The notes under the pieces: model-generated
What the model was told of the DNA's origin: nothing
What the model saw: the letters and a program-made list of their open reading frames with translations, nothing else
Databases searched by the model: none
Origin: a virus
Taxonomy: Duplodnaviria; Heunggongvirae; Uroviricota; Caudoviricetes
Length of the DNA stretch: 64,000 nucleotides
Direction: 5' to 3' (one strand)
IMG/VR virus record: IMGVR_UViG_3300045988_147489
Location: 20,848-84,847 of that record
Position numbers and translations under genes: made by a program
Part shown: in pieces, positions 30,787 through 61,341 of the stretch
Layout of the letters: the number at the start of each line of letters is the position of its first letter
Numbering within the stretch: position 1 is the first letter of the stretch

Positions 30787-30829
30787 CTAATACTAGAAAA
30801 CAATTTGTTTAAAAAACAAAGGAAAGCAC

Positions 30830-32170
30830 ATGACCGAACTTTGCCATACAGGACGCGGGCTGTCCGAAGAGTTTGATGAAGATTTCCAGAACAGACTGAC
30901 GGCATATTTTTGTCGTGATCACGAGTTTCTTACTCGTGCGGGAGATCTGGTTGTGCCTAGCCAGTTTGCCAATGCGGCCAATGCCATATTGGTTAATATG
31001 GTTTCGGGCTATTACCGTATGTACAAGAGCGCGCCCTCTTCATCTGCAATTCTGGATATGCTTAAGCGTGCGAAACGCGATAAGACTATCCGTGAGGAAC
31101 TATTCGCCGATGTTGTTGCTGCGTTTAAGCGCATTCTTGCAGAAAAATTGTCCGATACCTCGTACATGGTTGACCAGGTATCAACCTTCGCAAAAAGTGT
31201 AGCGTTTGATGATGCTCTGATTAAGGCTGCTGAACTGAAAGAGAAAGGCGACTTTCAGGGGGCGATGGCAATCATGGCCAAGGTTCAGCAGATTGGATCG
31301 AACGAAGCGACCGGAATCTATGACTACTACACCTCCGCAAGTGAGCGATTGAAAGCGCGTGAATATGAGGCTTCAGAGGAGTATGTACCAAACAGTATTA
31401 CAACTGGACTCCCTCTTCTCGATAGGTTGCTGTACCAAAAAGGCTGGGCAAAGCGCGAAATGGTGCTCTTCATGGGGTTCGCTAAATCCGGTAAATCGAC
31501 CGCAATGGGTGAGTTTTCCATAAACGCAACGCTTGCTGGCTACAATGTTCTGTATCTCTCGCTGGAGGTTCACACCACCATTTTATCCGACCGTTTTGAT
31601 GCAAGATTGTCGGAGACAGAAATGTCCAAGCTGGTGGAACGGCGCGATGAGGTTCATCGTAAGTTGGCAGAGTTGGGAGCCACGAAGGGGATTGGTAGTT
31701 TGTGGGTGGTTGAGCGTCCGTCAGGAAGTATGTCACCGGCAGATCTGGACCGTATGCTTAACAGCATGAAAGCCAACGGCATGGTGCCTGACATGGTTGT
31801 TGTCGACTACGCAGATTTGATGCGTGCCAGTTATGACCTTCGTGATGATCGCGCCAACATTCGTAGCATCTACACCGATTTACGTGCTCTTTATGACAAG
31901 CATAACGTTGCTGGGATCACGGCATCGCAGACAAACCGTGAAGGTGGCGCGTCAGAAGTTGCCACAATGATGCACGCTGCCGACAACATCGAAAAAGTAC
32001 GTATTGCTGACCTGGTAATAACGATCAACAAAACCGAAGAAGAAGAAGCGAAAGGAGAGGCTCGTCTCTACTTTGCCGGTTCACGTAACCAGCAGGGAGG
32101 GATCAGCATTCGCGTTAAACAAAACCTCGAACAAATGCGCTTCATTGAGCGAATCTTAGACGTTACCTAA
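30830..32170 (+). CDS. DnaB-like replicative helicase
   Basis: RecA-fold ATPase with Walker A FMGFAKSGKST, Walker B VVVDYADL, and ITASQTNREGG resembling the DnaB-family arginine-finger region; adjacent to primase. Confidence 0.65.
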   Translation: MTELCHTGRGLSEEFDEDFQNRLTAYFCRDHEFLTRAGDLVVPSQFANAANAILVNMVSGYYRMYKSAPSSSAILDMLKRAKRDKTIREELFADVVAAFKRILAEKLSDTSYMVDQVSTFAKSVAFDDALIKAAELKEKGDFQGAMAIMAKVQQIGSNEATGIYDYYTSASERLKAREYEASEEYVPNSITTGLPLLDRLLYQKGWAKREMVLFMGFAKSGKSTAMGEFSINATLAGYNVLYLSLEVHTTILSDRFDARLSETEMSKLVERRDEVHRKLAELGATKGIGSLWVVERPSGSMSPADLDRMLNSMKANGMVPDMVVVDYADLMRASYDLRDDRANIRSIYTDLRALYDKHNVAGITASQTNREGGASEVATMMHAADNIEKVRIADLVITINKTEEEEAKGEARLYFAGSRNQQGGISIRVKQNLEQMRFIERILDVT

Positions 32171-32251
32171 AAAATAAGCGTGGAGAACACCTCCACGCTT
32201 GATTCATTGGTGAAACAACTTTTCTTTTGCCAAACCACAAAAGAAAAACAC

Positions 32252-33433
32252 ATGAACCTTTATATTATATCAACATTTAGGTTGGTCACAATATTGCCTG
32301 TTAAAAGTGGAATTATCGTGAGCGAGCTGAAAGAGCTAATTACCGAATTAGATTTTGAACAATGGTTGGATACTGAAGGTATCGTTTATCGACGTGGAGG
32401 CGTGAGTACTCGCGGTCGTGAAGTGAATATCAAGGAGTGTCCGGTATGCGGCAGCTCCAACTGGAAGGTATATTTCAATCTGACCAGTGGCGTCGGTAAA
32501 TGCTTCGCTGGTGATCATCCCGAAGAGATTCAGTTCAATAAGCTGGTCTTCCTCAAGCACTACAGCGGCAAATCACGACGACAGTTCGAGGAATATGTGC
32601 AGAACGCCCTTCTTTCCCAGGGGTGGGCACCAAAGAAAGAAGAGCTAGTGCTTGCAAGCACAGTCGAGTTAGAGGAGCCAGTTGCACTCCCTCGTCATTA
32701 CGAGCTTCCTATAGATGGCCGTCTTCCAGACTATCTGGTTGAACGAAACATATCGCCTGAAATGGCAAAGTATTTTGACCTACGATACTGCGTCGAAGGC
32801 AAGCACGCCTATGTAGATCCGTATACAGATCAGGTTAAAGGACAGATATTCGATATGCGAATACTGATACCGGTTTACGATCTGGATGGGGTAATGAAGA
32901 CATTTCAGGGACGAGACATTACCGGTACAGCAGAACGCCGCTACCTCTTTCCTATGCAACTTCCAGCTTCAGGTAAGTTTCTCTACAACGGCCATAATGC
33001 AGTCGGCAAACAGACTGTAGTTGTCTGTGAGGGGGCGTTCGATGTTATGGGGGTTAAACGAGCTATTTTTGACGAAGAAACATTACGTGATTACGTGGAA
33101 CCAATAGGAACGTTCGGGATGCATCTATCTGGTAACACCACTCAGGATGCAGAAGATCAGTTAGGCGCGTTCCTGACGCTCAAGGCGCGTGGGTTACGTA
33201 ATGTGATCATGATGTGGGATAGTGAAAAGCAAGCTATACGCAACACGATGGCCGCAGCCAGGCGACTGACCAGTATTGGTCTTAATGTCAAAGTGGCGTG
33301 TTTGGGCGAGGAAGGACTCGACCCGGGCGATGCAACGCCAGAGCAAATCATCAAAGCCTATTATCGGGCAAAACCGTATACCAAACAGTTGGAGTTGCAA
33401 AGCAAGGTTTTGGGCATTAAGGCTCTATCATAA
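32252..33433 (+). CDS. DNA primase (zinc ribbon plus TOPRIM)
   Basis: CPVCGSSNW...GKCFAGDH zinc-binding region; TOPRIM-like VVVCEGAFDVMGV; ATG 32252 carries the conserved AAAGAAAAACACATG cassette; upstream in-frame start at 32180 possible. Confidence 0.65.
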   Translation: MNLYIISTFRLVTILPVKSGIIVSELKELITELDFEQWLDTEGIVYRRGGVSTRGREVNIKECPVCGSSNWKVYFNLTSGVGKCFAGDHPEEIQFNKLVFLKHYSGKSRRQFEEYVQNALLSQGWAPKKEELVLASTVELEEPVALPRHYELPIDGRLPDYLVERNISPEMAKYFDLRYCVEGKHAYVDPYTDQVKGQIFDMRILIPVYDLDGVMKTFQGRDITGTAERRYLFPMQLPASGKFLYNGHNAVGKQTVVVCEGAFDVMGVKRAIFDEETLRDYVEPIGTFGMHLSGNTTQDAEDQLGAFLTLKARGLRNVIMMWDSEKQAIRNTMAAARRLTSIGLNVKVACLGEEGLDPGDATPEQIIKAYYRAKPYTKQLELQSKVLGIKALS

Positions 33434-33508
33434 CAATCACCTTTAAAATAAGTAGATGATTACTTATCTTTCTGTGAGAATACTTTCATCTGTTAGCTAG
33501 GAGTTGGT

Positions 33509-34291: not shown

Positions 34292-34346
34292 TCTCTCCGC
34301 GCGTCGTTTTTTACGCAAATAACGATAGGTAAGTACAAGATTATTT

Positions 34347-34829
34347 ATGGCGGTAGTTGTGAAAGCTGATTTGTCAAAAATCCCCTCTATTTCAGGAAAT
34401 AATGGTTATTCACTTCGTTGTGAGGAAGTAAAGATAAACGGTGAGTCGGCATATTGCAGCTACTCCGTTTGCCAGCACACCATTCTTGCCTTCAAAGAAA
34501 ACCGTCTTCCTCGAACTTCATTCCAGTCGTGCGCAACCGCTATCAAAGCAGGCAAATGCAAGGCGTTAAAAATGATGGTTGAAGAGATTCGTAAAGGAGA
34601 ATCTCTGTATTTCGAAGATATGACCGCGCTCATTAAGGAGGTTGAAGAACGGAATAAACAAGCCAGAACTTTAAAACGAAAACGTGACAGTGTAACGATT
34701 AATAGCATGGTTAAGAAGAGCGCCACATCACAAACAGCGATCACTGACGTGTATGCGGCGTTGCTTGAAGAAACAACAAAAGAAACACATGAGCAAATCG
34801 ATCAACATATGGAGGCAAAACAACAATGA
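34347..34829 (+). CDS. hypothetical Cys-containing protein
   Basis: ORF from track; stop overlaps ligase start. Confidence 0.4.
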   Translation: MAVVVKADLSKIPSISGNNGYSLRCEEVKINGESAYCSYSVCQHTILAFKENRLPRTSFQSCATAIKAGKCKALKMMVEEIRKGESLYFEDMTALIKEVEERNKQARTLKRKRDSVTINSMVKKSATSQTAITDVYAALLEETTKETHEQIDQHMEAKQQ

Positions 34830-36148: not shown

Positions 36149-36324
36149 TGCTCGGCTGGATGATTGCATTTTTAGCAGTTGGTTTTTTCATCGGTATTGT
36201 GGTGATGTCCAGTTGCATTAATGACTACATTAAAAACGGTGTTATAGAAAGACGCGGTCGTATTTATCGCATTGTAGAAATAACCAACACCCTGAAGGAG
36301 ATTAAGGATGATCGTATTAAGTAA
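36145..36324 (+). CDS. small membrane protein (59 aa), paralogue 1
   Basis: not in ORF track (under 60 aa); ATG overlaps ligase stop; translation MMLGWMIAFLAVGFFIGIVVMSSCINDYIKNGVIERRGRIYRIVEITNTLKEIKDDRIK. Confidence 0.4.
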   Translation: MMLGWMIAFLAVGFFIGIVVMSSCINDYIKNGVIERRGRIYRIVEITNTLKEIKDDRIK

Positions 36325-36523
36325 ACGGGAGAAGGAAACGCTTCATGAAATCAGTAAGTGGCCGGAGTTCCCTGAGTACTGGAAGCCTAAAACGCGAGCT
36401 AAGTTAGAGCGTTTAGGGTTGGTTGCAAACGTTTCTGAAACGAAGTGTTCGGCCAACTACCAGTTAACTGATAAAGGGAAAGTATTGCTACAGCAATTAG
36501 TAGAATCAGGAGTGTTAAAATGA
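36308..36523 (+). CDS. hypothetical small protein
   Basis: 71-aa ORF, start overlaps previous gene. Confidence 0.35.
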   Translation: MIVLSKREKETLHEISKWPEFPEYWKPKTRAKLERLGLVANVSETKCSANYQLTDKGKVLLQQLVESGVLK

Positions 36524-36959: not shown

Positions 36960-37195
36960 AAACATCATGATAAGTATTTACTTACTTATCTTTTATGTAT
37001 AAGATGACTTTGTTTTCGTTGAGACGCGACTGTTTGAACTTAAATACAAGTGCAAACGAAGAAGTCTATCTGGCAGTAGCCTAATAAGCCAAACACCAGC
37101 GAGGTCAGTTTCCAGCCTCGTTACCGAAATGGGACACACTGAGCGAGTGTGATTGCAGAACGCAGGAGGGAACATTCATGTTCCCTCCGATGAAG

Positions 37196-37737: not shown

Positions 37738-37812
37738 GATGGTGTAGCTCAGCGGTAGAGCAGTTGGCTGTTAACCAACTGGTCGGTGGTTCGAATCCAC
37801 CCACCATCGCCA
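37738..37812 (+). tRNA. tRNA-Asn (anticodon GTT)
   Basis: cloverleaf folded by hand: 7-bp acceptor GATGGTG/CACCATC, anticodon loop CTGTTAA, T-loop GGTTCGAATCC, CCA end. Confidence 0.8.
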
Positions 37813-37817
37813 ATTTA

Positions 37818-37904
37818 GGGGAGTTAGTCCGTAGAGGTAGCGGTGTAGACTGTAAATCTACTGTCATGGCGACTCGGGTGGTTCGACTCCATCACTCCCC
37901 ACCA
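37818..37904 (+). tRNA. tRNA-Tyr (anticodon GTA), long variable arm
   Basis: acceptor GGGGAGT/ACTCCCC, anticodon stem-loop GTAGA-CTGTAAA-TCTAC, T-loop GGTTCGACTCC, CCA end. Confidence 0.75.
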
Positions 37905-37908
37905 AATT

Positions 37909-37984
37909 GCCGGTTTAGCTCAGTTGGTAGAGCGCCTGCCTTGTAAGCAGGATGTCAGCGGTTCGAGTCCGTTAACCGGCACCA
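37909..37984 (+). tRNA. tRNA-Thr (anticodon TGT)
   Basis: acceptor GCCGGTT/AACCGGC, D-arm GCTCAGTTGGTAGAGC, anticodon loop CTTGTAA, T-loop, CCA end. Confidence 0.8.
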
Positions 37985-37992
37985 ACATAATA

Positions 37993-38073
37993 TTGAGAAC
38001 ATTGGCGTAACGGGTTCATATCCCAATTTATGAATATAATGTTGCGTTGCAGCGTGACAACCAGTGTTCTCAA
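37993..38073. repeat. long-range inverted repeat C immediately 3' of tRNA-Thr
   Basis: TTGAGAACATTGG ... CCAGTGTTCTCAA (1 mismatch). Confidence 0.5.
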
Positions 38074-38278
38074 CATTGTGGTGAATGCACAGGCTGATGT
38101 GCGACGTAGAAGCAAGCGGATGAACTGCCTGAAGGCCGCTAACGTAGGCAATGCCGGAGATCAGCACCGGCCATCACAATTTGGCTCTCTTGCAACAGCA
38201 TAACGCTGAAATACGTCCAACCTGGTGCGGTCTGATCACCCGCCGTTAGCTCCACGAAACGGAGCACACAACACAATT

Positions 38279-38365
38279 GGAGAGTAGGGAGCATGGTGCT
38301 CAAGCGGTCTTGAAAACCGTCCCATTGTGCAAACGATGATGGTTCGATTCCATTACTCTCCGCCA
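38279..38365 (+). tRNA. tRNA-Ser (anticodon TGA), long variable arm
   Basis: acceptor GGAGAGT/ACTCTCC, anticodon stem-loop GCGGT-CTTGAAA-ACCGT, T-loop GGTTCGATTCC, CCA end. Confidence 0.65.
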
Positions 38366-41208: not shown

Positions 41209-41388
41209 CCCACCAAACTCACGCTTGGTTCCCTTAAAATTCAAAAAACAACGGCTAAATGATTCCATACCTACTATGTATGGAATCATTACTGAAAATG
41301 AGTTACTTTTACTCTTGATCCTATAAGAATCTATGCCTAATATACTGTTTACTTATACAGTGAATCGGCGTAACTCGGTGATTGTCAT

Positions 41389-42492
41389 ATGAAAAATAGC
41401 TTTGACAGAGCACGCGCTGCGGAGAACACCTCAAAAGAGGCGATTGAGTATCTCGAAAGAGCATCTCAAATGCAGGCCGTTATGATCTCGCAGGTCAGCA
41501 ATGACATGAGATTCTCGGACGCATTCATGTTATTCACTCGCTTATCTCTGCTGATAACAAGACGTCGGCCAGAGATCGCTGTTCATTGTATTTTGATACA
41601 TGTTTTGCCGCACATTGCCGATGTAAAAGTAAGTGACATTAATAGGTTCATGGTGAACCAACTGGTCAACCCACTAATACTGGATGGCAAAATTGTTATG
41701 GGCCGCCGCGTTTTCTCTCTGATGAAGCAGTTCCTTAGCTGGTGCGCCTTCCAGGGGATGATAGACGTGTCACCGTTAAACGATATGTCACTAAACAAAG
41801 TTGCCGGTGGCGCAAAGCCTACACCTCGCGAGCGGAAGCTGACCGACGCAGAGGTATGGGTGTTCTGGAATATATGGGACTACTTCAATGTGTGCGCTGG
41901 TACAAAATGGGCGGCCAGGCTGTGTCTTGTATCCGCAAGACGACCTGACGAAGTACTGCGGGCTAAAAAAAGTGAGTTCAATCTTAAGCGTGGGGTTTGG
42001 AATCAAGGCAAGAGGAACAAATCTGCCCGTGAGCATTCTCTGCCTTTAAGCTCATTAATGCGCACTTGTATTGAAGAGTTGTTCGAATATGGTAAAGACA
42101 GCCAGTGGCTCGTGCCTTCGAATAAAAAAATCGGGAAAGACCTTCCTATGTCTAAAGTGGCAATAGCCCAGGCATTACGTCGTATTCTGGAACGACCAGA
42201 ACTGATGGAGCTTGAGCCATTTACACCCCGAGATTTGCGCCGTACTGCGCGTAGTTACTTCCCAGCATTAGGCATAAGCCAGGAGGTATCACGTAAAATC
42301 ATGAACCACAGTCTTGAGGGGATAGATCGGGTCTACGACCGGCACGATTATATGGACGAGATGCGAGACGCCTTAGAAAGTTTCTCGACGTACATCGCAT
42401 CAATCGTAGAGCAACCGGATTTAGACGAAATTGACCACAAATTTAAGGGAGATCGTCTATCAACAGAGCTTATTCGTGTAAATTTTTCATAG
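41389..42492 (+). CDS. tyrosine recombinase / phage integrase family protein
   Basis: C-terminal catalytic-domain pattern with conserved Arg/His/Tyr (LRRTARSYF, HSLEGIDRVYDRHDY). Confidence 0.75.
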   Translation: MKNSFDRARAAENTSKEAIEYLERASQMQAVMISQVSNDMRFSDAFMLFTRLSLLITRRRPEIAVHCILIHVLPHIADVKVSDINRFMVNQLVNPLILDGKIVMGRRVFSLMKQFLSWCAFQGMIDVSPLNDMSLNKVAGGAKPTPRERKLTDAEVWVFWNIWDYFNVCAGTKWAARLCLVSARRPDEVLRAKKSEFNLKRGVWNQGKRNKSAREHSLPLSSLMRTCIEELFEYGKDSQWLVPSNKKIGKDLPMSKVAIAQALRRILERPELMELEPFTPRDLRRTARSYFPALGISQEVSRKIMNHSLEGIDRVYDRHDYMDEMRDALESFSTYIASIVEQPDLDEIDHKFKGDRLSTELIRVNFS

Positions 42493-42873
42493 AGACTTTA
42501 TGGCCTCAACAACCTTTTGTGATGCGCCTTTCTCTTTACCGAATCGCTCGTTATATGCAGCAAGAACCTGTTTTTCGTCCTCGTTAAGAGGAGCAGTGCC
42601 TTCTTTGTATAAAAATGCTGCGAGTTCGGGTTGGCGTTCTTCCAGCACCATCATCATAAGACGACTTGGCTCAATGCCCAGTGCCAGCGCCAGCGGACGA
42701 ACCTTATCGATAGGCAAAGGAATTTTGCCGCTTTTAATTAAAGAAAGGTTGTTGGCGTTTTTATACCCAATTGTTTTGGCTATCTGGGCCTGGCTCATAG
42801 GTGAGGATTCAATCAACCCTGCGATAAAAGCAGCATAGCGACTTTCTATAAATTCAATCTTGTTGTCAGACAT
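42487..42873 (-). CDS. HTH (XRE/Cro-CI-like) transcriptional regulator
   Basis: helix-turn-helix signature QAQIAKTIGYKNANNLSLIKSGK; 3' end overlaps integrase 3' end by 6 bp. Confidence 0.6.
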   Translation of the reverse strand: MSDNKIEFIESRYAAFIAGLIESSPMSQAQIAKTIGYKNANNLSLIKSGKIPLPIDKVRPLALALGIEPSRLMMMVLEERQPELAAFLYKEGTAPLNEDEKQVLAAYNERFGKEKGASQKVVEAIKSL

Positions 42874-43123
42874 TGTTACAACCTTTGCGCGTTCAATTCT
42901 CTCTGGTAAGTGCTTACCGATATTACATCAAAGGTTAGGGTTGTAAAGCTATTATCATTTTTTCGATAGGCACTTAAAAGACCGGTTAAAGGCCATTGCA
43001 CGGAGAAAAATTGGCCCAAAACAGGTAAGAAAATTAACTTGCATATGATATGAATGTATTCAGTATTGATATAAATTTTAGTAGTATTCCTTACCATAGT
43101 ATAAGTTAGAATGGATTGATTGA

Positions 43124-43336: not shown

Positions 43337-43434
43337 CCCCTCTTCTCCCTGCGCGAATGGCTTAGTTCCCTGTTCGCGCAGTGCTACATTAAACACACTA
43401 GTAAATAATTTGTTTTCATAACAAAGGATTAGCC

Positions 43435-45543: not shown

Positions 45544-45638
45544 ACAAAACAGCCTTAATGATAAGTTACTACTTACGATAGATGATGATATATTTATATA
45601 AGAAGTTGAACGCTCATTAGAGAACAAAGGAAAAACGC

Positions 45639-46874
45639 ATGACGACTACTGCACTGCAAAATGAAAAAAATCCTTCTGATTACCTTGTTTGCAAGTGGTG
45701 CGGCAAATCATTTCACTATTTTAAGTCCCATGTAGCCAATGGTAATTGCGAGGGCATTCCTGAGTCAGTAAAAGATGCCGATCCTGACACCGTACTGAAA
45801 ATGTACACAACGCAGTTTCCAGATGAACCAACGCTATCGAAAAAGGCACTTGATGCAATTCAAGCTAAACGTGCCGAGCAAAAAAGCGAAATGGCCAAAT
45901 CTTCTGGCTTGACCAGTAGCCCTGGCTACACAGGCACAGTTGAGTACAAGATGGATCTGGTCGCAGCTCACGAACTGCTAAACGTAACGGTGGAAGAACT
46001 CGGAACAAAACGTGGGACGCCGCTCATGGTTAGCGTCAACGTCAATACGCCGTATCCAGAGTTCGTTCCCGAAGTGAAGAAAGGCTACGTATATGGCGAC
46101 TTCGAACTGATCAAAGATATTTTCATGATGCTTGAACTTGGCATACCTGGCTATTTGTGGGGTCATGCAGGAACAGGCAAATCGTCATTGCCTACACAGC
46201 TATGTGCTTTGCTCAATCGTCCGTTGATCCGTGCCCAACATACAGCATCAATGGAAGAGGCACATGTTACGGGGCAAATTCTGGCGCGTGATGGCTCTAC
46301 GTATTTCGAACCTGGCTTGCTTGCGCTCGCAATGAAGCATGGCTGGGTTTACCTCGCGGATGAATACGACTTTGCGTTTCCACAAATTCTTGGCGTGTAT
46401 CAGCCAGTGCTGGAAGGTGAAGCGTTGGTCATCAAAGAGGCAACTCCAGAATGGCGTCGCATTACTCCGCATGAACGGTTTGCTTTCATTGGCACTGGCA
46501 ACACGAACGGATCTGGTGATGAAACCGGCTTGTACCAGGGTACAAACATCCAGAACGCCGCGAACTTTTCGCGTTTTGGCATCGTTTCGAATGTGAAATA
46601 CATGAGCAAAGACGCAGAGATCAACATGTTGACAAATGCAGGCATCGTGGATGAATACGCTGAAAAGATGGTTAAGTTTGCCGGTATCGTTCGCGATGGA
46701 TACGAAGAACACCTTATTAGTCAGCCAATTGGCCCTCGTGAACTTTTGTTGTCGGCCAAGATTGGAATGATGCGAGGCGACTTTGTGACAGGTATTGAGC
46801 GTTCTTTCATTAACAAACTCCCTTCAGCTTCTGCACAAGCGGCTCGTGAAGTTGTTCAAAAAATATTTGGTTAA
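45639..46874 (+). CDS. AAA+ ATPase (MoxR/CobS-like) with N-terminal Cys cluster
   Basis: Walker A GHAGTGKSS, Walker B VYLADEYDF; CxxC...C..C near N-terminus. Confidence 0.65.
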   Translation: MTTTALQNEKNPSDYLVCKWCGKSFHYFKSHVANGNCEGIPESVKDADPDTVLKMYTTQFPDEPTLSKKALDAIQAKRAEQKSEMAKSSGLTSSPGYTGTVEYKMDLVAAHELLNVTVEELGTKRGTPLMVSVNVNTPYPEFVPEVKKGYVYGDFELIKDIFMMLELGIPGYLWGHAGTGKSSLPTQLCALLNRPLIRAQHTASMEEAHVTGQILARDGSTYFEPGLLALAMKHGWVYLADEYDFAFPQILGVYQPVLEGEALVIKEATPEWRRITPHERFAFIGTGNTNGSGDETGLYQGTNIQNAANFSRFGIVSNVKYMSKDAEINMLTNAGIVDEYAEKMVKFAGIVRDGYEEHLISQPIGPRELLLSAKIGMMRGDFVTGIERSFINKLPSASAQAAREVVQKIFG

Positions 46875-46876
46875 TC

Positions 46877-47080
46877 GTGCGTAAAGGATGTTTCGGCTCT
46901 CTTATCGCTGCTTCTGAAACTGGTAAGGCTTGTCTGGTGTGTCCAGACAAGCCCGATTGTCACCAATCAGCAAAAGAAGTTGCGATTTCGATGCATGGGA
47001 AGTTCGTAGGCTTCCCCAATGACAAAATCAAAAAAACCAGAAAGGTAAAAACACATGAAGGCACTGATGGTTCGAACTGA
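46877..47080 (+). CDS. small Cys-rich hypothetical protein
   Basis: 67-aa ORF with GTG start, overlaps polymerase start; weak. Confidence 0.2.
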   Translation: MRKGCFGSLIAASETGKACLVCPDKPDCHQSAKEVAISMHGKFVGFPNDKIKKTRKVKTHEGTDGSN

Positions 47081-50610: not shown

Positions 50611-50698
50611 ATCCCCTCATATCCCCTATCCTCGAACTCCTTGCCTTATCATCACAATGATATAATCAATATAAGATGATAAGTCAAAAGGAAAGCAC

Positions 50699-51130
50699 AT
50701 GATCACCGATATTTACGAGAAAATAATGTCTGATCTCGAGTTTGACCGAGACAATCTGGAGGAAGTCTGGCGTAGACAACCCCGCCTTTTAATGGAGTAT
50801 GGCTCAAAACTCGCTCATGCAGAAAGAAGTGTCGCAGAGGCAAAACTTAACCTTGAAGCTGTTGAAGCAAAGCTATACGACACAGAGCGTAAGAACTTGA
50901 GTATGAACGGTATTAAGTTCAACGAGTCTGTACTGGACGCTAAGGTTAAAACAAACCCACAGTATCTGTCTAAACGGCAGAAGTTGGATGAAGCACGGCA
51001 CATCGCAGACATATACAAACATGCTGTCGCCGCCTTTTCGCATCGCCGAGACATGATCGTTCAGGCGTCAAAGATGGCCATCGTTGAATTAGAGCGATTA
51101 GGCTCTGAACGCTTTATTACTCCCCGTTGA
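50699..51130 (+). CDS. hypothetical coiled-coil protein
   Basis: ORF with conserved RBS cassette. Confidence 0.45.
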   Translation: MITDIYEKIMSDLEFDRDNLEEVWRRQPRLLMEYGSKLAHAERSVAEAKLNLEAVEAKLYDTERKNLSMNGIKFNESVLDAKVKTNPQYLSKRQKLDEARHIADIYKHAVAAFSHRRDMIVQASKMAIVELERLGSERFITPR

Positions 51131-51247
51131 TTTTTGATAGATAATAAGTAAGTACTGATCTATCATTTAACAGCTCGAAAGAGCCACGAATGAACGAAAG
51201 CCCAACGCGCATAGCGCCATCGGCCAAATCACAACAAGGAGAAACAC

Positions 51248-52276
51248 ATGTCTAAGACATTACTTGATTTGCTTAACAAAACTCGTGAAGACATTGCCGC
51301 CAAACGTGGTAACAACGTTGATCTGACTCGCTTAAAAGACGGCGTCAACTATATCCGCATCTTCCCGAATAAAGACGACCCAAACGGTAAGTTCTTCCAG
51401 ACTTTCGGTATGCACTACGTTAAGTATCAGAACGAGGAAGGTAAAGAAGCAACCAACGCTTATATTTGTGAGCAACATACTCACGGTCGCGCTTGTCAGC
51501 TATGCGAAATGGTGATGGAAGGTCGCGCTCGTCACAAGGGTAACAAAGCAATGGAAGAACGCATCGGTCAAATGCGTGCCACTCCTCGCTACCTGGTCAA
51601 CGGCATTCTTTCTGCTCGTGAGGATTTCGCAGATGCTGAGAAATGCCAGTTAATCGAGCTGCCGTCTACTGTATTCGATGATATCTGCAAAGCAATCACC
51701 GAAGACATCGCTGATGATATCGGCAATCCACTGAGCAAAGAGGAAGGCTACGCATTCCTGATTAAACGTACTGGCTCTGGTCGCGATACCAAATATGACG
51801 TCTCGCCTAAGCGTAAAGTCTACAAAGGCGATATCGAAGATAAATTCTGGAATACCCAGCATGATCTGATCGCATACGCAAATCAGGCTGATGAAACTCG
51901 TCTTCTGTCGACAGTTCGCACTATGGGTCGTCTGATTGGCATCGCTGCACCAACTGCCGCAGCATCTGCACCAGCAATTTCCTCAACCGCGAAAACATCG
52001 GCTGCGGCACTACCTGGATTTGGCTCTGTCACTGGTCATACGGAGGGTGCGACTGCTGTAGCTACCGCTCATACCCCAGCTTCTGAACCAACCAGTCTGG
52101 TTGATGAAGAAATCCTCCGTGCCGTTGAAACTGAATTTAAACCAGAAGCAAGTCCCGCTGCCGTTGCAGTATCAGTCAAAGAGTCTGAAGCAGTCGCAGC
52201 GACATCTGTAGCAGCCGCATCTGCGACGGAAGATGAAGGTCTGGATGACCTACTGAGAGAGCTGGACTCTCTGTAA
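51248..52276 (+). CDS. ssDNA-binding protein (T4 gp32-like) with acidic C-terminal tail
   Basis: His/Cys cluster CEQHTHGRACQLCE in an N-terminal segment (IRIFPNKDDPNG) that resembles my recollection of the gp32 zinc-binding core; Ala-rich linker; acidic C-terminus EDEGLDDLLRELDSL. Confidence 0.55.
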   Translation: MSKTLLDLLNKTREDIAAKRGNNVDLTRLKDGVNYIRIFPNKDDPNGKFFQTFGMHYVKYQNEEGKEATNAYICEQHTHGRACQLCEMVMEGRARHKGNKAMEERIGQMRATPRYLVNGILSAREDFADAEKCQLIELPSTVFDDICKAITEDIADDIGNPLSKEEGYAFLIKRTGSGRDTKYDVSPKRKVYKGDIEDKFWNTQHDLIAYANQADETRLLSTVRTMGRLIGIAAPTAAASAPAISSTAKTSAAALPGFGSVTGHTEGATAVATAHTPASEPTSLVDEEILRAVETEFKPEASPAAVAVSVKESEAVAATSVAAASATEDEGLDDLLRELDSL

Positions 52277-52293: not shown

Positions 52294-52322
52294 TAAGGCG
52301 TCTACGGACGCCTTACTTTTTG
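52294..52322 (+). terminator. rho-independent terminator (member of a repeated terminator family)
   Basis: TAAGGCGTC-TACG-GACGCCTTA then CTTTTT. Confidence 0.7.
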
Positions 52323-53549: not shown

Positions 53550-54623
53550 ATGGCAAAAGGAAAATCCGCACTGGCACTTGCTCTGAAAAAGAAAATCGGT
53601 AGCAACGACGAAATTCAGAAAGTAACTCATTGGATTGATACAGGCTTTCCACCGTTAAACAAAGCTATTTCTGGTCGTTACGATGGCGGCTTCCCATGTG
53701 GTCGTATCGTCGAAGTATTCGGTCCTCCAAGTGCAGGGAAAACGTTCCTTGCAACAGCAGCGATGATCTCCGCTCAAAAACAAGATGGTCTGGCGGTATT
53801 CCTCGATCATGAAAACAGTTTTGACGTTGGCCTGGCTGTAGCCAATGGCCTGAACGCAGATGAGGATGACGGTCAGTGGGTATACAAGCAGCCTGATACC
53901 TTCGAAGACTCTGTAGAGTTGATCGGCACAATTCTTAAATTGGTACGTGATGAAGAGCTTATTCCTGAATCAGCACCTATCTGTATCGTGGCTGACTCAC
54001 TTGCGTCTATGGTTCCGAACTCCAAAGCCGAGAAGTTCGAAAAGATGGCTGAAGGCACTGCCAAAGACAAAGATCAGCTAAACATGAACGACAATACGGC
54101 ACTGGCTCGTGCGACAAGTGCGAACTTCCCTACTCTGGCTTTGTGGGCACGCAAATACAACGCCTGCATCATCTTCTTGAATCAGGTTCGCACAAAAATC
54201 GGTGTAATGTTTGGCGACCCTACTACGTCTCCAGGTGGAGATTCACCGAAGTTCTACGCTTCTGTACGTATCCGTCTTGGTGCATCGGTGATGAAGGATG
54301 GTAAAGAGAAGATCGGCCAGGACGTAGGCGCAGAATGCATCAAAAACAAAGTTGCACCACCGTATGGCAAATGCACCTGGAAATTCTACTTCGATCCTAC
54401 TCGTGGCCTCGACGTTATCGAATCGCTCGTCGAGTACATGCTGGAAGAAGGATACCTGCCAAAGAACGCCAGCGGGCGAGTTGAAATTGGTGACAAGAAA
54501 TACACCAAATCGCAGATCGTCGAGATGTATCGGGAGAAGCCACTGGCTGAAATCATTGCGGCTTTGCAGGCAATCGACGACCGAAGAGCAAAAGACAACC
54601 CAACCGAGTCAGTAGAAGAGTAA
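53550..54623 (+). CDS. RecA-family recombinase
   Basis: GGFPCGRIVEVFGPPSAGKTFLATAAM parallels the RecA Walker A region; AAAGGAG RBS. Confidence 0.8.
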   Translation: MAKGKSALALALKKKIGSNDEIQKVTHWIDTGFPPLNKAISGRYDGGFPCGRIVEVFGPPSAGKTFLATAAMISAQKQDGLAVFLDHENSFDVGLAVANGLNADEDDGQWVYKQPDTFEDSVELIGTILKLVRDEELIPESAPICIVADSLASMVPNSKAEKFEKMAEGTAKDKDQLNMNDNTALARATSANFPTLALWARKYNACIIFLNQVRTKIGVMFGDPTTSPGGDSPKFYASVRIRLGASVMKDGKEKIGQDVGAECIKNKVAPPYGKCTWKFYFDPTRGLDVIESLVEYMLEEGYLPKNASGRVEIGDKKYTKSQIVEMYREKPLAEIIAALQAIDDRRAKDNPTESVEE

Positions 54624-54628: not shown

Positions 54629-54653
54629 AGGCGTCCACAGGACGCCTTTTTTA
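54629..54653 (+). terminator. rho-independent terminator (repeated family)
   Basis: AGGCGTCC-ACAG-GGACGCCT then TTTTTT. Confidence 0.75.
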
Positions 54654-54715
54654 TCTCTTGAAAATATATAAGTACTTACTTATTATTTTCGCATAACAAC
54701 CACATAGGAAAACAC

Positions 54716-54916
54716 ATGATCAAAATCTATCTATTGGCAGTAGCCACAGGCGTTTCAGTGGCTCTCATCTACGGTTTACTGGTTCCGTCGCTGATTTCTA
54801 CCAAGAGTGATTTAGCCGTCATGTTTGGAGTTATCGTTGGTTTTGGTGCTCCTGTAATCGGTCTTATTGCTGGTCGTAAGTTTATCAACTCATTAATCAA
54901 AGCAAAGGGGAAATAA
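54716..54916 (+). CDS. small two-TM membrane protein (partner of SPFH protein)
   Basis: 66 aa, hydrophobic; conserved RBS cassette. Confidence 0.45.
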   Translation: MIKIYLLAVATGVSVALIYGLLVPSLISTKSDLAVMFGVIVGFGAPVIGLIAGRKFINSLIKAKGK

Positions 54917-55766: not shown

Positions 55767-55792
55767 AGGCGTCCAGTTGGACGCCTTTTTTA
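55767..55792 (+). terminator. rho-independent terminator (repeated family)
   Basis: AGGCGTCC-AGTT-GGACGCCT then TTTTTT. Confidence 0.75.
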
Positions 55793-55841
55793 TCGCAATT
55801 ATCTTATTAAGAAAACAATTTGTTTAAAAGGATAAGAAAAC

Positions 55842-56267: not shown

Positions 56268-56322
56268 TCGCCTATTCATAACTAACAAAATAAGTAAACA
56301 CTAACCACAAAAGGAAAAACAC

Positions 56323-56598
56323 ATGAGAGTTTTAGTTCGAATCGTTACCAGCACTGTCTATGACGTGTTTCCGCTTTTTATGGTCAAAGTCGATGGCCTT
56401 AACGATGAAGAAACTGACGCGCTGATCCAGCGTACTCTTGTTGAATATACAGGTCATGACGCTGATTCAGTGATGGTTGATGATGATGGTGTTTGTTGGC
56501 ATAACGGCAACTGTTGGTACGTAGAAGAGACTCAACAAATCAGTAATGAAGATGCTGAACATCTTGAGCGTATTTTAAGCATCAGCACTTTTGAGTGA
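56323..56598 (+). CDS. hypothetical protein
   Basis: ORF with conserved RBS cassette. Confidence 0.45.
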   Translation: MRVLVRIVTSTVYDVFPLFMVKVDGLNDEETDALIQRTLVEYTGHDADSVMVDDDGVCWHNGNCWYVEETQQISNEDAEHLERILSISTFE

Positions 56599-56813
56599 GT
56601 TTACAGTAAAGTTTATATAAGTTAGTATCTACCTATCATGAAGATTTTTATTGAATACTTGTTACTCATCGTTTCAATAGCTTTTGTCATCGACTGCATT
56701 TTCACTGGTGTCATTCGTAAAGTCTTTTCCCCGGTGCACGACGTAGTCATAAACGCTTTGGCTATCGTGCTCGTATTTAATTCAGCATTTGATGTAATCA
56801 AAGAGGTGGCAGC

Positions 56814-57361: not shown

Positions 57362-57407
57362 ATGCAAACTGACTGCGGCACGTTCCGCAGTCATATTTCA
57401 TAGTCGT

Positions 57408-57941
57408 CACCGCTGACAGCATACACAATCAACTACCGCTGATAGCATATCGAGAGTCTATCTCACCGCTCACAGCATACTTTACTCGATTTTTTACCGC
57501 TGACAGCATACTTAAGAAATTGCATGAATAATGTGTCCCGGTATGGGTATAACCAGAACAAAATTACCGCTGGCAGCATACGAATGTCTGACATATACCA
57601 TTAATTACCGCTGATAGCATATCCAAACAAAAATTCCTCAATAAAACACCGCTGACAGCATACGTTCTATCAGGGAGTAGCAGGCAATAAATGCCTTTCA
57701 CTACAAGCAATCAGCGCAATAGCAATAGAATGTTAGTGAGCGCAAACCTATATGGAATGCACTCTTCGAGGTTAGTAACCACTGGGGAGGTATGACAGAG
57801 CATTGAGTGGTGATAGATGATTTACCGCTCACAGCATACGTTCATCTCACTATACCGCTGGTAGCATATCTTTAACCGTTCACAGCATACTTTTCAGAAA
57901 AATAGCCGCTGATAGCATACATTTCACCGCTGACAGCATAT
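57408..57941 (+). repeat. iteron array downstream of repA (incA-like control locus): 12 copies of about 17-bp repeat, consensus (T/C)ACCGCTGACAGCATAC
   Basis: copies at about 57408, 57434, 57464, 57495, 57565, 57606, 57647, 57823, 57853, 57874, 57904, 57925; same orientation; two clusters separated by about 160 bp. Confidence 0.8.
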
Positions 57942-59035
57942 CAAAGCAGTTTGAGACTATTGGAAAGGATCTCAATCATCTTGATATTTTCAGGCGTCAA
58001 ATTCTGCGAAAGTTCGGTTATCTTGTTGATAATGTTCTGTTTGGCATCAATTTCCCCAGCTTTCTCATCTGGTTTTTTGGGTTCGATGTCTTCAGGTTTT
58101 GGCGGTGCGACTTTGAGTTTTGGATTGCGGCTGTGAATCTGGATATAGATCGACCGCCCACGCTTAATCTCGCTGTATTCGAGATAGCCCAAATCTTGGA
58201 GAGCTTTTAAGCCGTTACGTATAGTCTGATTCTGCGAGCTGACATTCCTGCTACTCAAATTGAGTCGCGCACGCAATCGAGCAAGCGATACCGGCGCAGG
58301 CTTGGTAGGAAGACTTTCGATGAAGGTGTACAGAGCCTGTGCTGTTTCTTTGCGTGGTAGCTTATTGATAACCTTTAACTGCAAAAGAACCTTATGGTCA
58401 AAGCGATATAGTTCGGCCAGCTTCGGTTCTGCATAGAACACCACCGTATCTTTCTGCTCGTTGTAGTCCACGCTATTGATGAGGTGCACCATCAGAAGCG
58501 AGATCTTGTTAGAGCCGTCGACGTTCTTTTCTTCATACGTTCTCTGGAAAGACAGAGTTGTACGCATGATCTTCAAAAGACTGTTTGTAAGCCGGTCGCG
58601 GAGTGTTTTGCGGATCTGTGACGATGGATAGCCACAAAACTTAGCAAATTTCGTGATGCTTAACTCGACACGACCGTTAGGTTCGCCGTATTCTGCCAGC
58701 GAACGCACAACGCCCACCCACGTTTTGAAATCATGATCCATGTCGAGACGAGGACCGGTTATCTTGATATCGGAATAGCCTTCAGAACGGGCTACTTCGA
58801 GCTGGACAAGCTCCTTTGAAGCATCAATCTCATTTGGCTTGTTACGTTTACTGTATTTTGTTCCCTTAAGCGTGGGGACGAACAACCCCAGTCGCATCAA
58901 CGCAATTGGTTGGACTGTATTGTTGCTATTAGGGACAAGTTCCCCTGTGTACAATTCAAGGGAACCTTCTTCAAAGTTGTCGATGTTATCTTCTACTTCT
59001 TTGTTATTTTTACCTTTTTTATTTTTTGTGGACAT
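57941..59035 (-). CDS. repA: plasmid replication initiator RepA (iteron-binding)
   Basis: gene bracketed by iterons; start set at the internal ATG (MSTKNKKG...) because the upstream extension is translated from iteron DNA; AAAGG RBS. Confidence 0.7.
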   Translation of the reverse strand: MSTKNKKGKNNKEVEDNIDNFEEGSLELYTGELVPNSNNTVQPIALMRLGLFVPTLKGTKYSKRNKPNEIDASKELVQLEVARSEGYSDIKITGPRLDMDHDFKTWVGVVRSLAEYGEPNGRVELSITKFAKFCGYPSSQIRKTLRDRLTNSLLKIMRTTLSFQRTYEEKNVDGSNKISLLMVHLINSVDYNEQKDTVVFYAEPKLAELYRFDHKVLLQLKVINKLPRKETAQALYTFIESLPTKPAPVSLARLRARLNLSSRNVSSQNQTIRNGLKALQDLGYLEYSEIKRGRSIYIQIHSRNPKLKVAPPKPEDIEPKKPDEKAGEIDAKQNIINKITELSQNLTPENIKMIEILSNSLKLL

Positions 59036-59044
59036 GTGGACACC

Positions 59045-59147
59045 TTTGTCATTCAACCGCTGACAGCATACTTGATTTGCCGCTGACAGAATACCAAAAA
59101 CAGTTGGCAGCATACGGTGAACCGCTGACAGACTATCAATTACCGCT
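59045..59147 (+). repeat. origin iterons upstream of repA (4 full copies plus one partial)
   Basis: AACCGCTGACAGCATAC, TGCCGCTGACAGAATAC, partial TTGGCAGCATAC, AACCGCTGACAGACTAT, TACCGCTGACAGCATAC. Confidence 0.8.
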
Positions 59148-59196
59148 GACAGCATACATGAACATGGCTTCAGACCAGTCGTGGCGCGGCTTACAG

Positions 59197-59273
59197 CGAT
59201 CGGGGATCTTATTTGATCTATACAAGGATCTATCTATGGATCTCTTTATTAGGATCTATCCTGTGGATATGTG
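59197..59273. promoter_or_regulatory. origin-associated GATC cluster (six sites, mostly in GGATCT heptamers) plus DnaA-box-like TGTGGATAT
   Basis: GATC at about 59197, 59205, 59216, 59227, 59239, 59253; TGTGGATAT at 59263-59271; layout resembles P1 oriR. Confidence 0.55.
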
Positions 59274-59356
59274 AATAATTAAAACAGGCATTTACTACCT
59301 TCGGCGCACCTGGTGGGTTATCGTTGCCTCGGCTAACAATCACAGAAAAATGACAT

Positions 59357-60001
59357 ATGGATCTAAAACGCACGCGCTGGGTTCGTCGTCTTGAAGACGG
59401 CTCCTACACTATCGAATCAAATTCCAACCTGAATAAGCAGAAGTTGCTTTGTGACATCTGCGGTATAGCGGCGAAGTGCCCGATCTACGAAACCAGAATT
59501 AAACTTGATAAGGCTGGTGTGAATTTTCATTTAAACAGTTGCATCAGGTACGTTCCATTACTCGCATTTCGTAAACCGATCATCGGATTGGATGCTCCCT
59601 ACTTCAACACACTCCGTTCAGGTGTGACGTGGCGAGATCGTTTATCACCAGACAAGCTGATTTGCCTCGTATCCGCAGACACAGGGAAAATCATCCGTTT
59701 TGGGAAAGTAGACAAGGTTTACTCAGGCCCAGTAGACGAAATGTTGCGGAAACACAGCCGGTTTAATCATCTCTGTATGGGTGGTGAGAAAATCGAGAAG
59801 GTAGAAGAAGTGATCCGCAAATCCTACGGACACTTTCTGACCAAAGATAGCCTGCTCACCGCAATCTACATCAGACATGTAAAACGTGAGTTCGACCTCG
59901 AATACCACAGCGAAGAAGAGCTTAACCTTGTTGACCCACGTCCAAAAGCTGGCGTCATAAGCATAAACGCAGCGCGTAAAAAGCCCACTGACGCGCTGTA
60001 A
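59357..60001 (+). CDS. hypothetical protein
   Basis: ORF from track; followed by hairpin GGCGTAGAT...ATCTACGCC at about 60020-60040. Confidence 0.45.
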   Translation: MDLKRTRWVRRLEDGSYTIESNSNLNKQKLLCDICGIAAKCPIYETRIKLDKAGVNFHLNSCIRYVPLLAFRKPIIGLDAPYFNTLRSGVTWRDRLSPDKLICLVSADTGKIIRFGKVDKVYSGPVDEMLRKHSRFNHLCMGGEKIEKVEEVIRKSYGHFLTKDSLLTAIYIRHVKREFDLEYHSEEELNLVDPRPKAGVISINAARKKPTDAL

Positions 60002-60255
60002 CCCTCCAGATCGTATATTGGCGTAGATAGAATCTACGCCTCCTCAAAATAGCTCTCATAGCGTTCTACAGTGATCCTGTCTTATTTTTAGTCATACAGA
60101 CAAGCAAAGTTGCTCCACAATAAATAGGTATATACTTACTTATAAATTTTGTATATTAAGACGCTCGTTTCATTCCTAACATACCGTTATGCATAGTTGT
60201 TTACCTTCTCATTGCTCTTAAAATTTGTATCAAAATAACCACAAAGGAAAAACAC

Positions 60256-61341
60256 ATGACTTTGCCATACGGCGTCATTTCTGACTGCCACTACCACAAA
60301 TGGGATGCGTTCTCCACGACGAACGCAGAGGGGCTTAACTCCAGACTTGAAATACAGTTGGAAGCAACGAAAGAAGCAGCCATCGCCATGAAGAAGGCCG
60401 GTTGTAAGTACATGTTGGTTGCCGGTGATACATTTCACGTCCGAGGAACTGTGTCCCCTTCTGTTTTGCATTACGTAACTGAAACGTACAAGTGGATTAT
60501 CAACGAGCTTGATCTGACAGTAGTAATGCTGGCCGGTAATCACGATCTTGAAACCAACGATTCAGTATATAGCGCCAACGCAGCAGCATCGCTGAGTTCT
60601 ATCGGCGTGGTAATCGTATGTGGCAAACGCCCACACTCAATAAAAATTGGTGATGTGACTGTCCACCTGATTAGCTGGCGTAACAATCATGCGGAGCTTA
60701 TCAGCGATCTGAAAGCATTACGTAAGAGCGTAGAAGGTGATAATCATGACGTTGTTATCCATACATCCATTAACAAAGCCATTCCAACAATGCCTGACGT
60801 CGGTATCGATGCGCAGGAGTTAAAGGATATCGGCTTTCGTCTCGTGCTTAGTGGGCATTACCACAACCACAAAGAGGTCATTCCTGGAGTTATCAGTGTC
60901 GGTGCGCTGACCCATCAAAATTGGGGAGATGTTGGATCTCTGGCTGGTTACATGATCGTAAACCCGGACGGCAGTTTCAGTCACTACGAAACCAGTGCGC
61001 CTAAATTCATTAACCTGGAAGATTATGTTGCCGATGACCAAATTCGCGGCAACTACGTGCGTTTCCGCGCCGTAATTGAGAACGATGAAGAAGGCATTAA
61101 GTACCAGAACATCCTCAAAACAATGGGTGCAAAAGGTGTCGTGTGCAACTTCATCCGTAAGTCATCAATGATGGAAGGGACAGCAAGCACAACGGAAACC
61201 AGCAAAATCGATAGCCTGGGAGAGTCGGTATCTGCTTATTGCAAGATTGTCCACGATACTGACGGCGGATTTGATCTGAGCAAGTTGGATATTTTGTGTC
61301 AGGAAATCCTCACCGAAGCGGAGAGTTCGGAGGCTGTGTGA
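60256..61341 (+). CDS. SbcD/Mre11-like metallophosphoesterase nuclease
   Basis: calcineurin-like motifs: DCHYH, GDTFH, AGNHD, SGHYHNH. Confidence 0.7.
   Translation: MTLPYGVISDCHYHKWDAFSTTNAEGLNSRLEIQLEATKEAAIAMKKAGCKYMLVAGDTFHVRGTVSPSVLHYVTETYKWIINELDLTVVMLAGNHDLETNDSVYSANAAASLSSIGVVIVCGKRPHSIKIGDVTVHLISWRNNHAELISDLKALRKSVEGDNHDVVIHTSINKAIPTMPDVGIDAQELKDIGFRLVLSGHYHNHKEVIPGVISVGALTHQNWGDVGSLAGYMIVNPDGSFSHYETSAPKFINLEDYVADDQIRGNYVRFRAVIENDEEGIKYQNILKTMGAKGVVCNFIRKSSMMEGTASTTETSKIDSLGESVSAYCKIVHDTDGGFDLSKLDILCQEILTEAESSEAV

Follow-up and report, generated by a model that had tools for sequence, protein, structure and literature searches.

A lineage-specific leader motif and a separate palindromic element precede lytic genes of an SSU5/pHCM2-type phage-plasmid

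Nine genes in a 64,000-nucleotide stretch of a tailed virus (IMG/VR record IMGVR_UViG_3300045988_147489, positions 20,848 to 84,847; hereafter the window, whose numbering is used unless another genome is named) begin directly after a near-identical leader with the consensus (ACCAC)AAAGGAAAAACAC-ATG. The window is an SSU5/pHCM2-type phage-plasmid of Escherichia coli, and the nine genes belong to its lytic replication and recombination module. The recurrence of the leader is statistically strong and is conserved family-wide. The motif is specific to a phage lineage and not to a host. Its features suggest a class-specific, unstructured ribosome-loading site for the first cistrons of non-structural lytic operons, a reading that we favour with somewhat less than even confidence. 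A palindrome found upstream of some of the leaders is a separate element, most likely a DNA operator.

All nine leaders lie on the plus strand and are given here together with their ATG. They precede the genes for a DnaB-like helicase (30808-30832, TTTAAAAAACAAAGGAAAGCACATG), a CobS/MoxR-like AAA ATPase (45617-45641, …AACAAAGGAAAAACGCATG), DNA polymerase III alpha (47033-47057, …CCAGAAAGGTAAAAACACATG, inside a small upstream open reading frame (ORF) at 46877-47080), a UvsY-like mediator (50677-50701, …GTCAAAAGGAAAGCACATG), a gp32-like single-stranded DNA-binding protein (SSB; 51226-51250, AAATCACAACAAGGAGAAACACATG), a 66-aa membrane protein (54694-54718, TAACAACCACATAGGAAAACACATG), a 91-aa protein without assigned function (h91; 56301-56325, CTAACCACAAAAGGAAAAACACATG) and an SbcD-like nuclease (60234-60258, AATAACCACAAAGGAAAAACACATG). 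The remaining leader (32230-32254, CCAAACCACAAAAGAAAAACACATG) opens a 22-codon extension of the primase and has lost the GG of its Shine-Dalgarno (SD) sequence. Every one of them precedes a real gene start, with 43-254 nt of non-coding DNA before it.

An earlier note on this DNA had claimed near-identical leaders at these nine starts, and the counts bear it out. Allowing up to three mismatches, AAAGGAAAAACACATG has 7 matches in the window where 0.92 are expected, and none of 100 shuffles reaches 7. All seven are on the plus strand and end on the ATGs at 32252, 45639, 47055, 50699, 51248, 56323 and 60256. The ATGs at 30830 (AAAGGAAAGCACATG) and 54716 (ATAGGAAAACACATG) conform if the length of the A-run is shifted by 1 nt. 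One pair described as identical, 56304-56325 (ACCACAAAAGGAAAAACACATG) and 60237-60258 (AACCACAAAGGAAAAACACATG), turns out to be one A apart, and the longest exact string common to window leaders is 17 nt (AAAGGAAAAACACATGA).

The same genes emerge without a motif being supplied. In the complete genome of the close relative PhiR41_1, positions -20 to -1 of all 134 annotated starts were compared in register, all pairs against each other. Identity reached at least 14/20 in 41 pairs, whereas a register-shift null predicts 0.5. Clustering of these segments yields one group of 14 genes, and no other cluster has more than two members. The group consists of the nine window genes, ribonucleotide reductase (RNR) beta and four accessory genes that lie outside the window. 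All 14 are non-structural first cistrons on the plus strand, start with ATG and have an upstream gap of at least 43 nt; none is in the virion module. In SSU5, which was annotated independently, a cluster of 10 is found. The triplet CAC occupies -3 to -1 in 17 of the 134 PhiR41_1 starts (counted by eye) and in 13 of 110 SSU5 starts, with roughly 2 expected, an enrichment of roughly 8-fold. The coupled or internal genes recA, exo, h88, h111, h70 and sbcC have ordinary, differing SDs.

The conserved part of the leader is (A/G)GAAA(A)ACAC, flush with the ATG, with 1.0-1.6 bits at -6 to -1 (AAACAC) and weaker conservation further upstream (ACCACA). An SD core, AAGGA or AGGA, lies 6-7 nt from the ATG in eight of the nine window members, while the primase leader has AAGAA only. 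A generic SD would show no position-specific conservation beyond the core, and alignment over all starts instead reveals the extended motif. The constraint beyond simple SD function proposed in the earlier note is thus upheld, since the motif is kept without the SD GG, is kept across relatives whose upstream DNA has diverged, has been gained before uvsY and is lineage-specific.

The simplest objection is that a generic AAGGA in A-rich intergenic DNA, with the rest set by base composition, produces such leaders by chance. It is true that the exact leader 16-mer is found, one copy each, in at least 120 stretches of many different IMG/VR contigs, mostly outside the retrieved SSU5-like set, so the string alone is not diagnostic, and that a two-letter A/C alphabet gives high pairwise identity by default. 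Composition restricted to A and C, however, would by our estimate give CAC in only about 6% of members, and neither the seven window matches, the 41 similar pairs nor the CAC counts in PhiR41_1 and SSU5 fit a chance origin. The counts refute this explanation, and we regard it as hardly credible.

The motif was followed through 80 related IMG/VR loci and seven further loci of distant relatives (six full-length, one of 7.5 kb), which were found via gp32-like homologues. Among the 80 loci, AAGGA…CAC-ATG is retained before the orthologues of cobS, the gene for the 66-aa membrane protein, h91 and sbcD; DNA upstream of -17 is unrecognisable, and the A-run varies in length by single bases. In relatives of about 80% identity, positions -16 to -1 of the cobS, gp32, h91 and sbcD leaders are 63-90% identical and positions -45 to -17 are 35-46% identical; these ungapped values are lowered by 1-nt indels in the A-run and serve for qualitative use only. 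The gp32 leader has TAC in place of CAC in most relatives. Where the GG of the SD is lost the motif persists, as in the primase leader (AAGAAAAACAC) and at the PhiR41_1 starts 20035 and 21258, which read AAGAGAAAAACA(C/T). Four of the distant loci (L207, L208, L210 and L212), whose gp32 is 41-44% identical, still carry AAAGGAAA(A)CAC-ATG. Their motif genes include cobS, both Pol III alpha parts, gp32, recA and a small membrane protein, among others, and CAC stands at -3 to -1 in 30 of their 90 called genes.

The uvsY leader indicates how a member can arise. Here the motif is restricted to the E. coli clade and differs from the other relatives by several point changes within an otherwise homologous intergenic region. 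Such stepwise changes point to convergence and not to replacement by a cassette.

This bears on a historical explanation, in which one leader, or a cassette of terminator, promoter and leader, was copied by recombination and now marks gene-swap junctions while working as an ordinary ribosome-binding site (RBS). Some repetition of this kind does exist: near-identical terminators (GGCGTCC…GGACGCC-T6) occur at 54630 and 55768, identical 20-mers containing the palindrome occur at 30795 and 55810, and the motif fronts accessory genes that vary between relatives. The same arrangement of terminator, promoter and palindrome stands before a DUF7238 gene in the window and before other genes in SSU5 and two related loci (L015 and L070). 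For the leader itself the history is different. In addition to the uvsY case, the DNA of the 14 members shows no relationship upstream of -17, exact identity between window members does not exceed 17 nt, and the motif sits at orthologous sites down to a gp32 identity of 41%, a persistence that requires selection and not recent copying. We therefore consider copying an unlikely source of the leaders. The suggestion of cassette-based shuffling in the earlier note fails for the leader and survives for the terminator-promoter-palindrome module, whose differing cargo genes are the only support found for a cassette.

Two leaders carry further features of their own. The primase motif ATG (32252-32320) begins an in-frame extension of 22 codons in the window and in Cyrano, a phage-plasmid of E. 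coli LF82. In SSU5 (L005, 35837-35908) the same ATG opens a separate upstream ORF of 23 aa, whose TGA overlaps the primase ATG, and the peptide of the extension or upstream ORF is conserved as M-x-LY…RL..ILP.KS. Upstream of the gp32-like gene, 51190-51225 contains a hairpin, GCGC-ATA-GCGC nested in GCC…GGC, which all relatives keep with changes in the loop only. It recalls the structured element of the autoregulatory leader of T4 gene 32; no covariation was seen. A possible tenth leader, in front of the ligase gene (at ATG 34789), falls within coding sequence of the preceding gene, corresponds to a 12-codon bridging ORF in SSU5, and was not counted. The 59-aa gene at 56638 has no SD (56600-56640); the sequence TTTACA-17-TAGTAT ends 9 nt before its ATG, relatives keep this arrangement, and its mRNA is a candidate for a leaderless transcript.

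What the leaders share is a lack of predicted structure. Their A+C fraction is 0.79, compared with 0.48 at other starts, and the mean energy needed to open positions -18 to +12 is 4.45 kcal/mol, against 7.65 for other first cistrons and 8.03 kcal/mol for internal genes (Mann-Whitney p = 1e-3 and 1e-4, respectively). The SD spacing of 6-7 nt and the A-rich second codons are favourable as well. The promoters before the 14 genes differ, with a TAAGTA-type inverted repeat in the spacer, the palindrome, a terminator or a conserved hairpin. This variability upstream indicates that the shared part belongs to the mRNA and to translation initiation, not to the promoter.

We propose that the leader is the translation-initiation region for first cistrons encoding replication, recombination, nucleotide metabolism and some accessory functions. 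It would combine an AAGGA SD placed 6-7 nt from the AUG, a near-pure A/C context that does not fold and an A-rich second codon, and with these three features a 30S subunit could load on a fresh 5' end without unfolding it. The leader may thereby raise or standardise initiation. A-rich and CA-rich unstructured leaders are known as translational enhancers in E. coli, where the effect is compositional. The motif resembles them in its A/C-only context, the absence of predicted pairing and a moderate SD at optimal spacing; it differs in having a fixed CAC at -3 to -1 and in being lineage-specific. In the LF82/Cyrano study, lysogenic expression was found for repressor, toxin-antitoxin and partition-region genes and not for replication genes, which is consistent with the motif genes being lytic.

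Several observations weigh against an intrinsically efficient RBS as the full explanation. The structural genes in these records lack the motif, which a simple "strongest RBS" view does not predict: the putative major capsid gene of SSU5 (start 4587) reads …AGGGAAATGAAAG-ATG, and the starts of the PhiR41_1 structural module (about 46-72 kb) have ordinary SDs. CAC at -3 to -1 is nearly invariant while the A-run varies in length, and low structure does not explain CAC. A sister lineage (lineage D; loci L206 and L209, gp32 52-54% identical) is without the motif in the same orthologous genes. Only 1 of its 47 starts has CAC, against 30 of 90 in the motif lineages (Fisher p = 8e-6), and opening the orthologous leaders costs 6.1 kcal/mol in lineage D and 3.1 kcal/mol where the motif is present (p = 8e-5). 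Lineage-D leaders are thus not unstructured by other means, and the motif is not a general optimum for enterobacterial ribosomes.

Nor does the host dictate it. NCBI names the gp32-like protein of L206 (P0057) as coming from Klebsiella pneumoniae, and motif-bearing relatives also occur in Klebsiella. As the same host genus holds both, the motif is not imposed by the host ribosome. An Acinetobacter plasmid relative (gp32 26% identical) has neither the leader motif nor a shared leader in its place. No near match that would supply a complete lineage-D genome for phyletic profiling was found in the phage or plasmid collections.

These points lead to a second possibility, an RNA operator function of the leader. 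A lineage-specific translational regulator, protein or RNA, would bind the unstructured A-run, CAC and AUG and switch a regulon of early and middle lytic genes on or off together, with a logic like that of T4 RegA or of gp32-type repression on unstructured RNA. This would be the coordinated translational control suggested in the earlier note. The presence of the motif on one gene class only, the non-structural first cistrons, speaks for it, as do the two kinds of relative in Klebsiella, the retention of the motif where the SD GG is lost, and the fixation of CAC beside the AUG while the spacer drifts. The phage also encodes a gp32-family SSB (PF08804). In T4, where autoregulation by gp32 and gp43 is a further parallel, RegA represses about 30 early and middle mRNAs; its sites are unstructured, carry a poly(A) tract on the 5' side and contain or adjoin the AUG (PMC3014915). 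The leaders are similar in sharing an unstructured initiation region with an A4-5 run and CAC beside the AUG, and their genes overlap in kind with RegA targets (gp32-like SSB, UvsY, polymerase and nucleotide-metabolism genes). RegA sites are A+U-rich and poorly conserved, whereas the leaders are A+C-rich and much more uniform.

No regulator came to light. Scans of 20 small proteins of the window against PHROGs, and of 10 of them also against Pfam, gave no RegA-like or other RNA-binding family, and the annotations of Cyrano, PhiR41_1 and SSU5 list none. Ten PhiR41_1 products of genes with the palindrome, the leader or both upstream, scanned against Pfam, returned nothing useful. Only two genes of the syntenic 20 kb, h91 and h111, occur throughout the motif lineages while being absent from lineage D. 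The product of h91 is acidic and that of h111 has a signal peptide; neither resembles an RNA-binding protein, and their phyletic pattern is a weak lead. A phage-encoded antisense or small RNA against the leader was rejected, as no complement of at least 11 nt exists in the window or the genome; a single 10-mer lies within coding DNA. A known RNA family was rejected too: Rfam finds tRNAs only, and nothing supports the RNA processing sites suggested in the earlier note. Conservation also stops at the AUG, with none downstream.

On balance, an intrinsic unstructured RBS is a plausible mechanism that we hold with a little less than even confidence, and a translational operator is a tentative one with clearly lower probability. 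It is conceivable, though doubtful, that the A-run, CAC and AUG form the operator of a regulator that is specific to most SSU5/pHCM2/pMT1-type phage-plasmids and was lost in one sister lineage. If that is true, the lytic genes of replication, recombination and nucleotide metabolism would form a translational regulon marked by the leader, and a RegA-like logic would have had an independent origin in a plasmid prophage of siphovirus type in Enterobacteria.

The closest analogue of the leader is the SAS/ESAS system of Cluster K mycobacteriophages. SAS is a 13-bp SD-containing motif located 3-7 bp before ATG starts of non-structural genes only, present in 11-19 copies per genome, and about half of the copies have an upstream inverted repeat (ESAS) that is thought to bind a protein (PMC3203893, PMC12699233). 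Its function was still unverified in 2025 (PMC3203893; the 188-genome survey PMC12699233), and the open function of these analogous motifs leaves room for an operator here. Both systems have a short asymmetric motif with an SD core directly before starts, in one orientation, with a strong ATG preference. Both are confined to non-structural genes, at a similar copy number (14 here) and an abundance that varies by sub-lineage, and in both an inverted repeat lies upstream of a subset, the palindrome being found at 4-5 of the 14 leaders.

The two are nevertheless unrelated in sequence. SAS reads GGGATAGGAGCCC and the leader AAAGGAAAAACAC, with only an AGGA core in common, and the leader did not qualify as a SAS at up to two mismatches. 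SAS is G/C-flanked and stands 3-7 bp from the start, while the leader is flush with the ATG, rich in A and C and without predicted structure. The ESAS repeat has two 17-bp arms and a spacer of 4-13 bp; the palindrome here is a single 15-bp unit with a 1-nt centre, and many promoters have it without a leader motif, unlike the ESAS repeat. The hosts are Actinobacteria in one case and Enterobacteria in the other. With the sequence test negative and phages and hosts unrelated, the leader is to be taken as an analogue of SAS and not as a member.

The palindrome had entered the earlier note as an exact 20-mer duplicated upstream of two genes. The duplication is correct: AGAAAACAATTTGTTTAAAA is found at 30795-30814 and 55810-55829, where 0.01 are expected, and a third copy with 3 mismatches lies at 27865 before parA. 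Its place in the leader story is not, for it is a separate DNA-level element, has far more than two copies and occurs with or without the leader. The core is the 15-mer GAAAACAA-N-TTGTTT, and the window contains AAACAA-N-TTGTTT 4 times, where 0.40 are expected.

In the window, GAAAACAAGTTGTTT (27866-27880) lies 35 nt before the parA ATG (27916), and GAAAACAATTTGTTT (30796-30810) lies 19 nt before the helicase ATG, with a -10-like TCTAAT (30778-30783) ending 12 nt upstream of it. The second GAAAACAATTTGTTT (55811-55825) is 16 nt before the ATG of the DUF7238 gene (55842) and directly after the terminator at 55768-55785. A degenerate copy, GTAAATAATTTGTTT (43401-43415), precedes the CobT-like gene at 43435 and has the canonical form GAAAACAAATTGTTT in relatives. 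The PhiR41_1 genome, 108 kb long and 89% coding, contains about 17 sites between genes and 3 within them; on both strands together there are 32 raw matches, where random sequence would give about 2. Genes with a copy in front are parA, helicase, cobT, RNR beta, the DUF7238 gene, a series of small accessory genes and the first gene of the packaging/structural operon, which has two in tandem. At the PhiR41_1 motif ATGs 5724, 15936, 16659 and 76070 the palindrome is 18-72 nt upstream, and it is farther away at 21258; most of its other sites have no leader. Conversely, nine motif leaders but not a single palindrome occur in the 21 kb of L210, which shows that the two elements are separable. Lineage D is without both.

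Across 39 non-redundant contexts from the family, a -10-like hexamer (GATAAT/TATTAT) ends 12-13 nt upstream of the palindrome, and the strongest flanking signal, at 1.8 bits, is the last T of this hexamer, 12 nt upstream. This spacing would place the palindrome at about +4 to +19, with its centre near +11, at roughly 17 promoters. A dimeric repressor that acts by blocking RNA polymerase classically binds there. We think it probable, from position and symmetry, that the palindrome is a protein operator on DNA. Two points temper this assignment: the -35 elements at the four window sites are weak (0-2 of 6 matches), and the position near +11 follows from the -10 assignment and not from mapped starts. 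A search for a clear sigma-70 -35 box at these promoters found none.

Other interpretations of the palindrome were rejected. An RNA hairpin cannot form on sequence grounds, as the arms are one base apart and allow no loop. An activator box of the P1 late type does not fit either, because at many sites the 11-24 nt to the ATG have no room for a -10 element, a start and an SD. Three candidate binders were considered, a helix-turn-helix (HTH) protein (42487-42873, minus strand), a ribbon-helix-helix-like ParB (28584-28943) and a 71-aa product (36308-36523), and nothing links any of them to the palindrome.

Dispersed, asymmetric repressor sites are known from the plasmid prophage P1, as the operators of its C1 repressor. 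Cluster A mycobacteriophages have dispersed repressor sites called stoperators (cited in PMC3203893). The palindrome is like both in being a short site at many promoters, including that of the replicative helicase gene, and in overlapping the transcription start or lying just downstream of it, a position that is predicted in our case. It is a symmetric 15-mer, whereas the P1 C1 site and the stoperators are asymmetric.

The palindrome often follows a GGCGTCC…GGACGCC-T6 terminator directly. The intrinsic terminator GGCGTCCACAGGACGCC + T6 (54630-54646, plus strand) closes the recA operon and is followed by TTGAAA-17-TATTAT (54658-54686) and then by the leader of 54716. The near-identical GGCGTCCAGTTGGACGCC + T6 (55768-55785, plus strand) lies just 5' of the promoter and palindrome of 55842. 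With a third at about 52300-52315, these terminators have the form (A)GGCGTC(C/T)-N2-4-GGACGCC(T) plus a T-run, and GGCGTC-type terminators recur across the family directly 5' of promoters.

A second inverted repeat, TAAG(T/C)-N0-8-(A/G)CTTA, is found in promoter-like spacers. Window copies are at 2534-2547, 8996-9009, 24840-24849, 29898-29908, 33449-33466, 36971-36988, 42907-42916, 45562-45575 and 54669-54682. In PhiR41_1, 20 of 34 occurrences of TAAGTA are intergenic against 3.7 expected. One copy, GGTAAGTGCTTACC, adjoins the HTH repressor gene, and the family extends to lineage D and to the Acinetobacter relative, where it reads AGTAAGCGCTTACT. TAAGT…ACTTA is probably the operator of the master repressor. 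This older family coexists with the palindrome and is the better candidate of the two for the master repressor site.

The window, with a G+C content of 47.6%, is 98% identical to the Escherichia phages CMS-2020a and PhiR41_1 and 94-96% identical to Cyrano; Salmonella phage SSU5 and several phage-plasmids of Klebsiella are more distant, at about 80%. The annotations of Cyrano, PhiR41_1 and SSU5 give its layout. Tail and lysis genes occupy 1-27 kb, followed by parA at 27.9 kb. The lytic module extends over 30-63 kb and encodes a DnaB-like helicase, primase, ligase, a CobT/CobS-like pair, Pol III alpha, UvsY-like and gp32-like proteins, an exonuclease, a RecA-like protein and SbcCD. A pair of genes for an integrase and an HTH repressor lies near 41-43 kb, and repA, flanked by iterons, is at 57.9-59.0 kb. 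Fourteen iterons, CCGCT(G/C)NNAGCATA, are located on both sides of the Rep3-family repA gene (57941-59035, minus strand), at 57410-57940 and 59057-59156, and a GATC-rich stretch follows at about 59200-59290. The iteron region around repA is the plasmid origin.

A LexA-type box, CTGTTTACTTATACAG (41345-41360), is intergenic and 5' of the integrase-like gene at 41389, which fits the reported induction of Cyrano by ciprofloxacin. The RecA-like gene (53550-54623) encodes 357 aa in the window and SSU5 and 779 aa in Cyrano and PhiR41_1, where the large insertion is possibly an intein or homing element. The tail module contains a single ORF of 4054 aa (11166-23330). In PhiR41_1 the J-like host-specificity gene measures only 4.6 kb, indicating strong divergence of this region between close relatives. 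A cluster of tRNAs (Asn, Tyr, Thr, Ser; 37738-38365) lies in 1.7 kb of non-coding DNA; the set is limited to Asn, Thr and Ser in Cyrano and to Asn in SSU5. In the Acinetobacter baumannii plasmid ZW85p2 (L213, 6668-7333), a sigma-70-family factor directly follows the CobS/MoxR-like gene and has no counterpart at the same position in the window.

Phage-plasmids of the SSU5/pHCM2/pMT1 type are common. A tblastn search of PLSDB with the lineage-D gp32-like protein (P0057) matched 974 plasmids, only 78 of them over at least 80% of its length. Most of the 974 come from Klebsiella, Escherichia, Enterobacter, Yersinia and Salmonella, and 136 are distant relatives from Acinetobacter. Phage-plasmids in general spread resistance genes (PMC9600943). 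A search of the accessible literature for gene regulation or regulatory motifs of SSU5-type elements turned up nothing. The present analysis provides a cis-regulatory map with two dispersed operator families and a start-associated leader that marks 14 lytic genes. Lineage D, lacking both leader and palindrome, is a natural control that makes the question of an optimised RBS or a translational operator directly testable. The leader would be an enterobacterial counterpart of the SAS/ESAS puzzle of mycobacteriophages, and its host is one in which reporter assays, toeprinting and ribosome profiling are standard practice. Even if it is merely an efficient RBS, it would still be a compact, structure-free initiation module of practical use.

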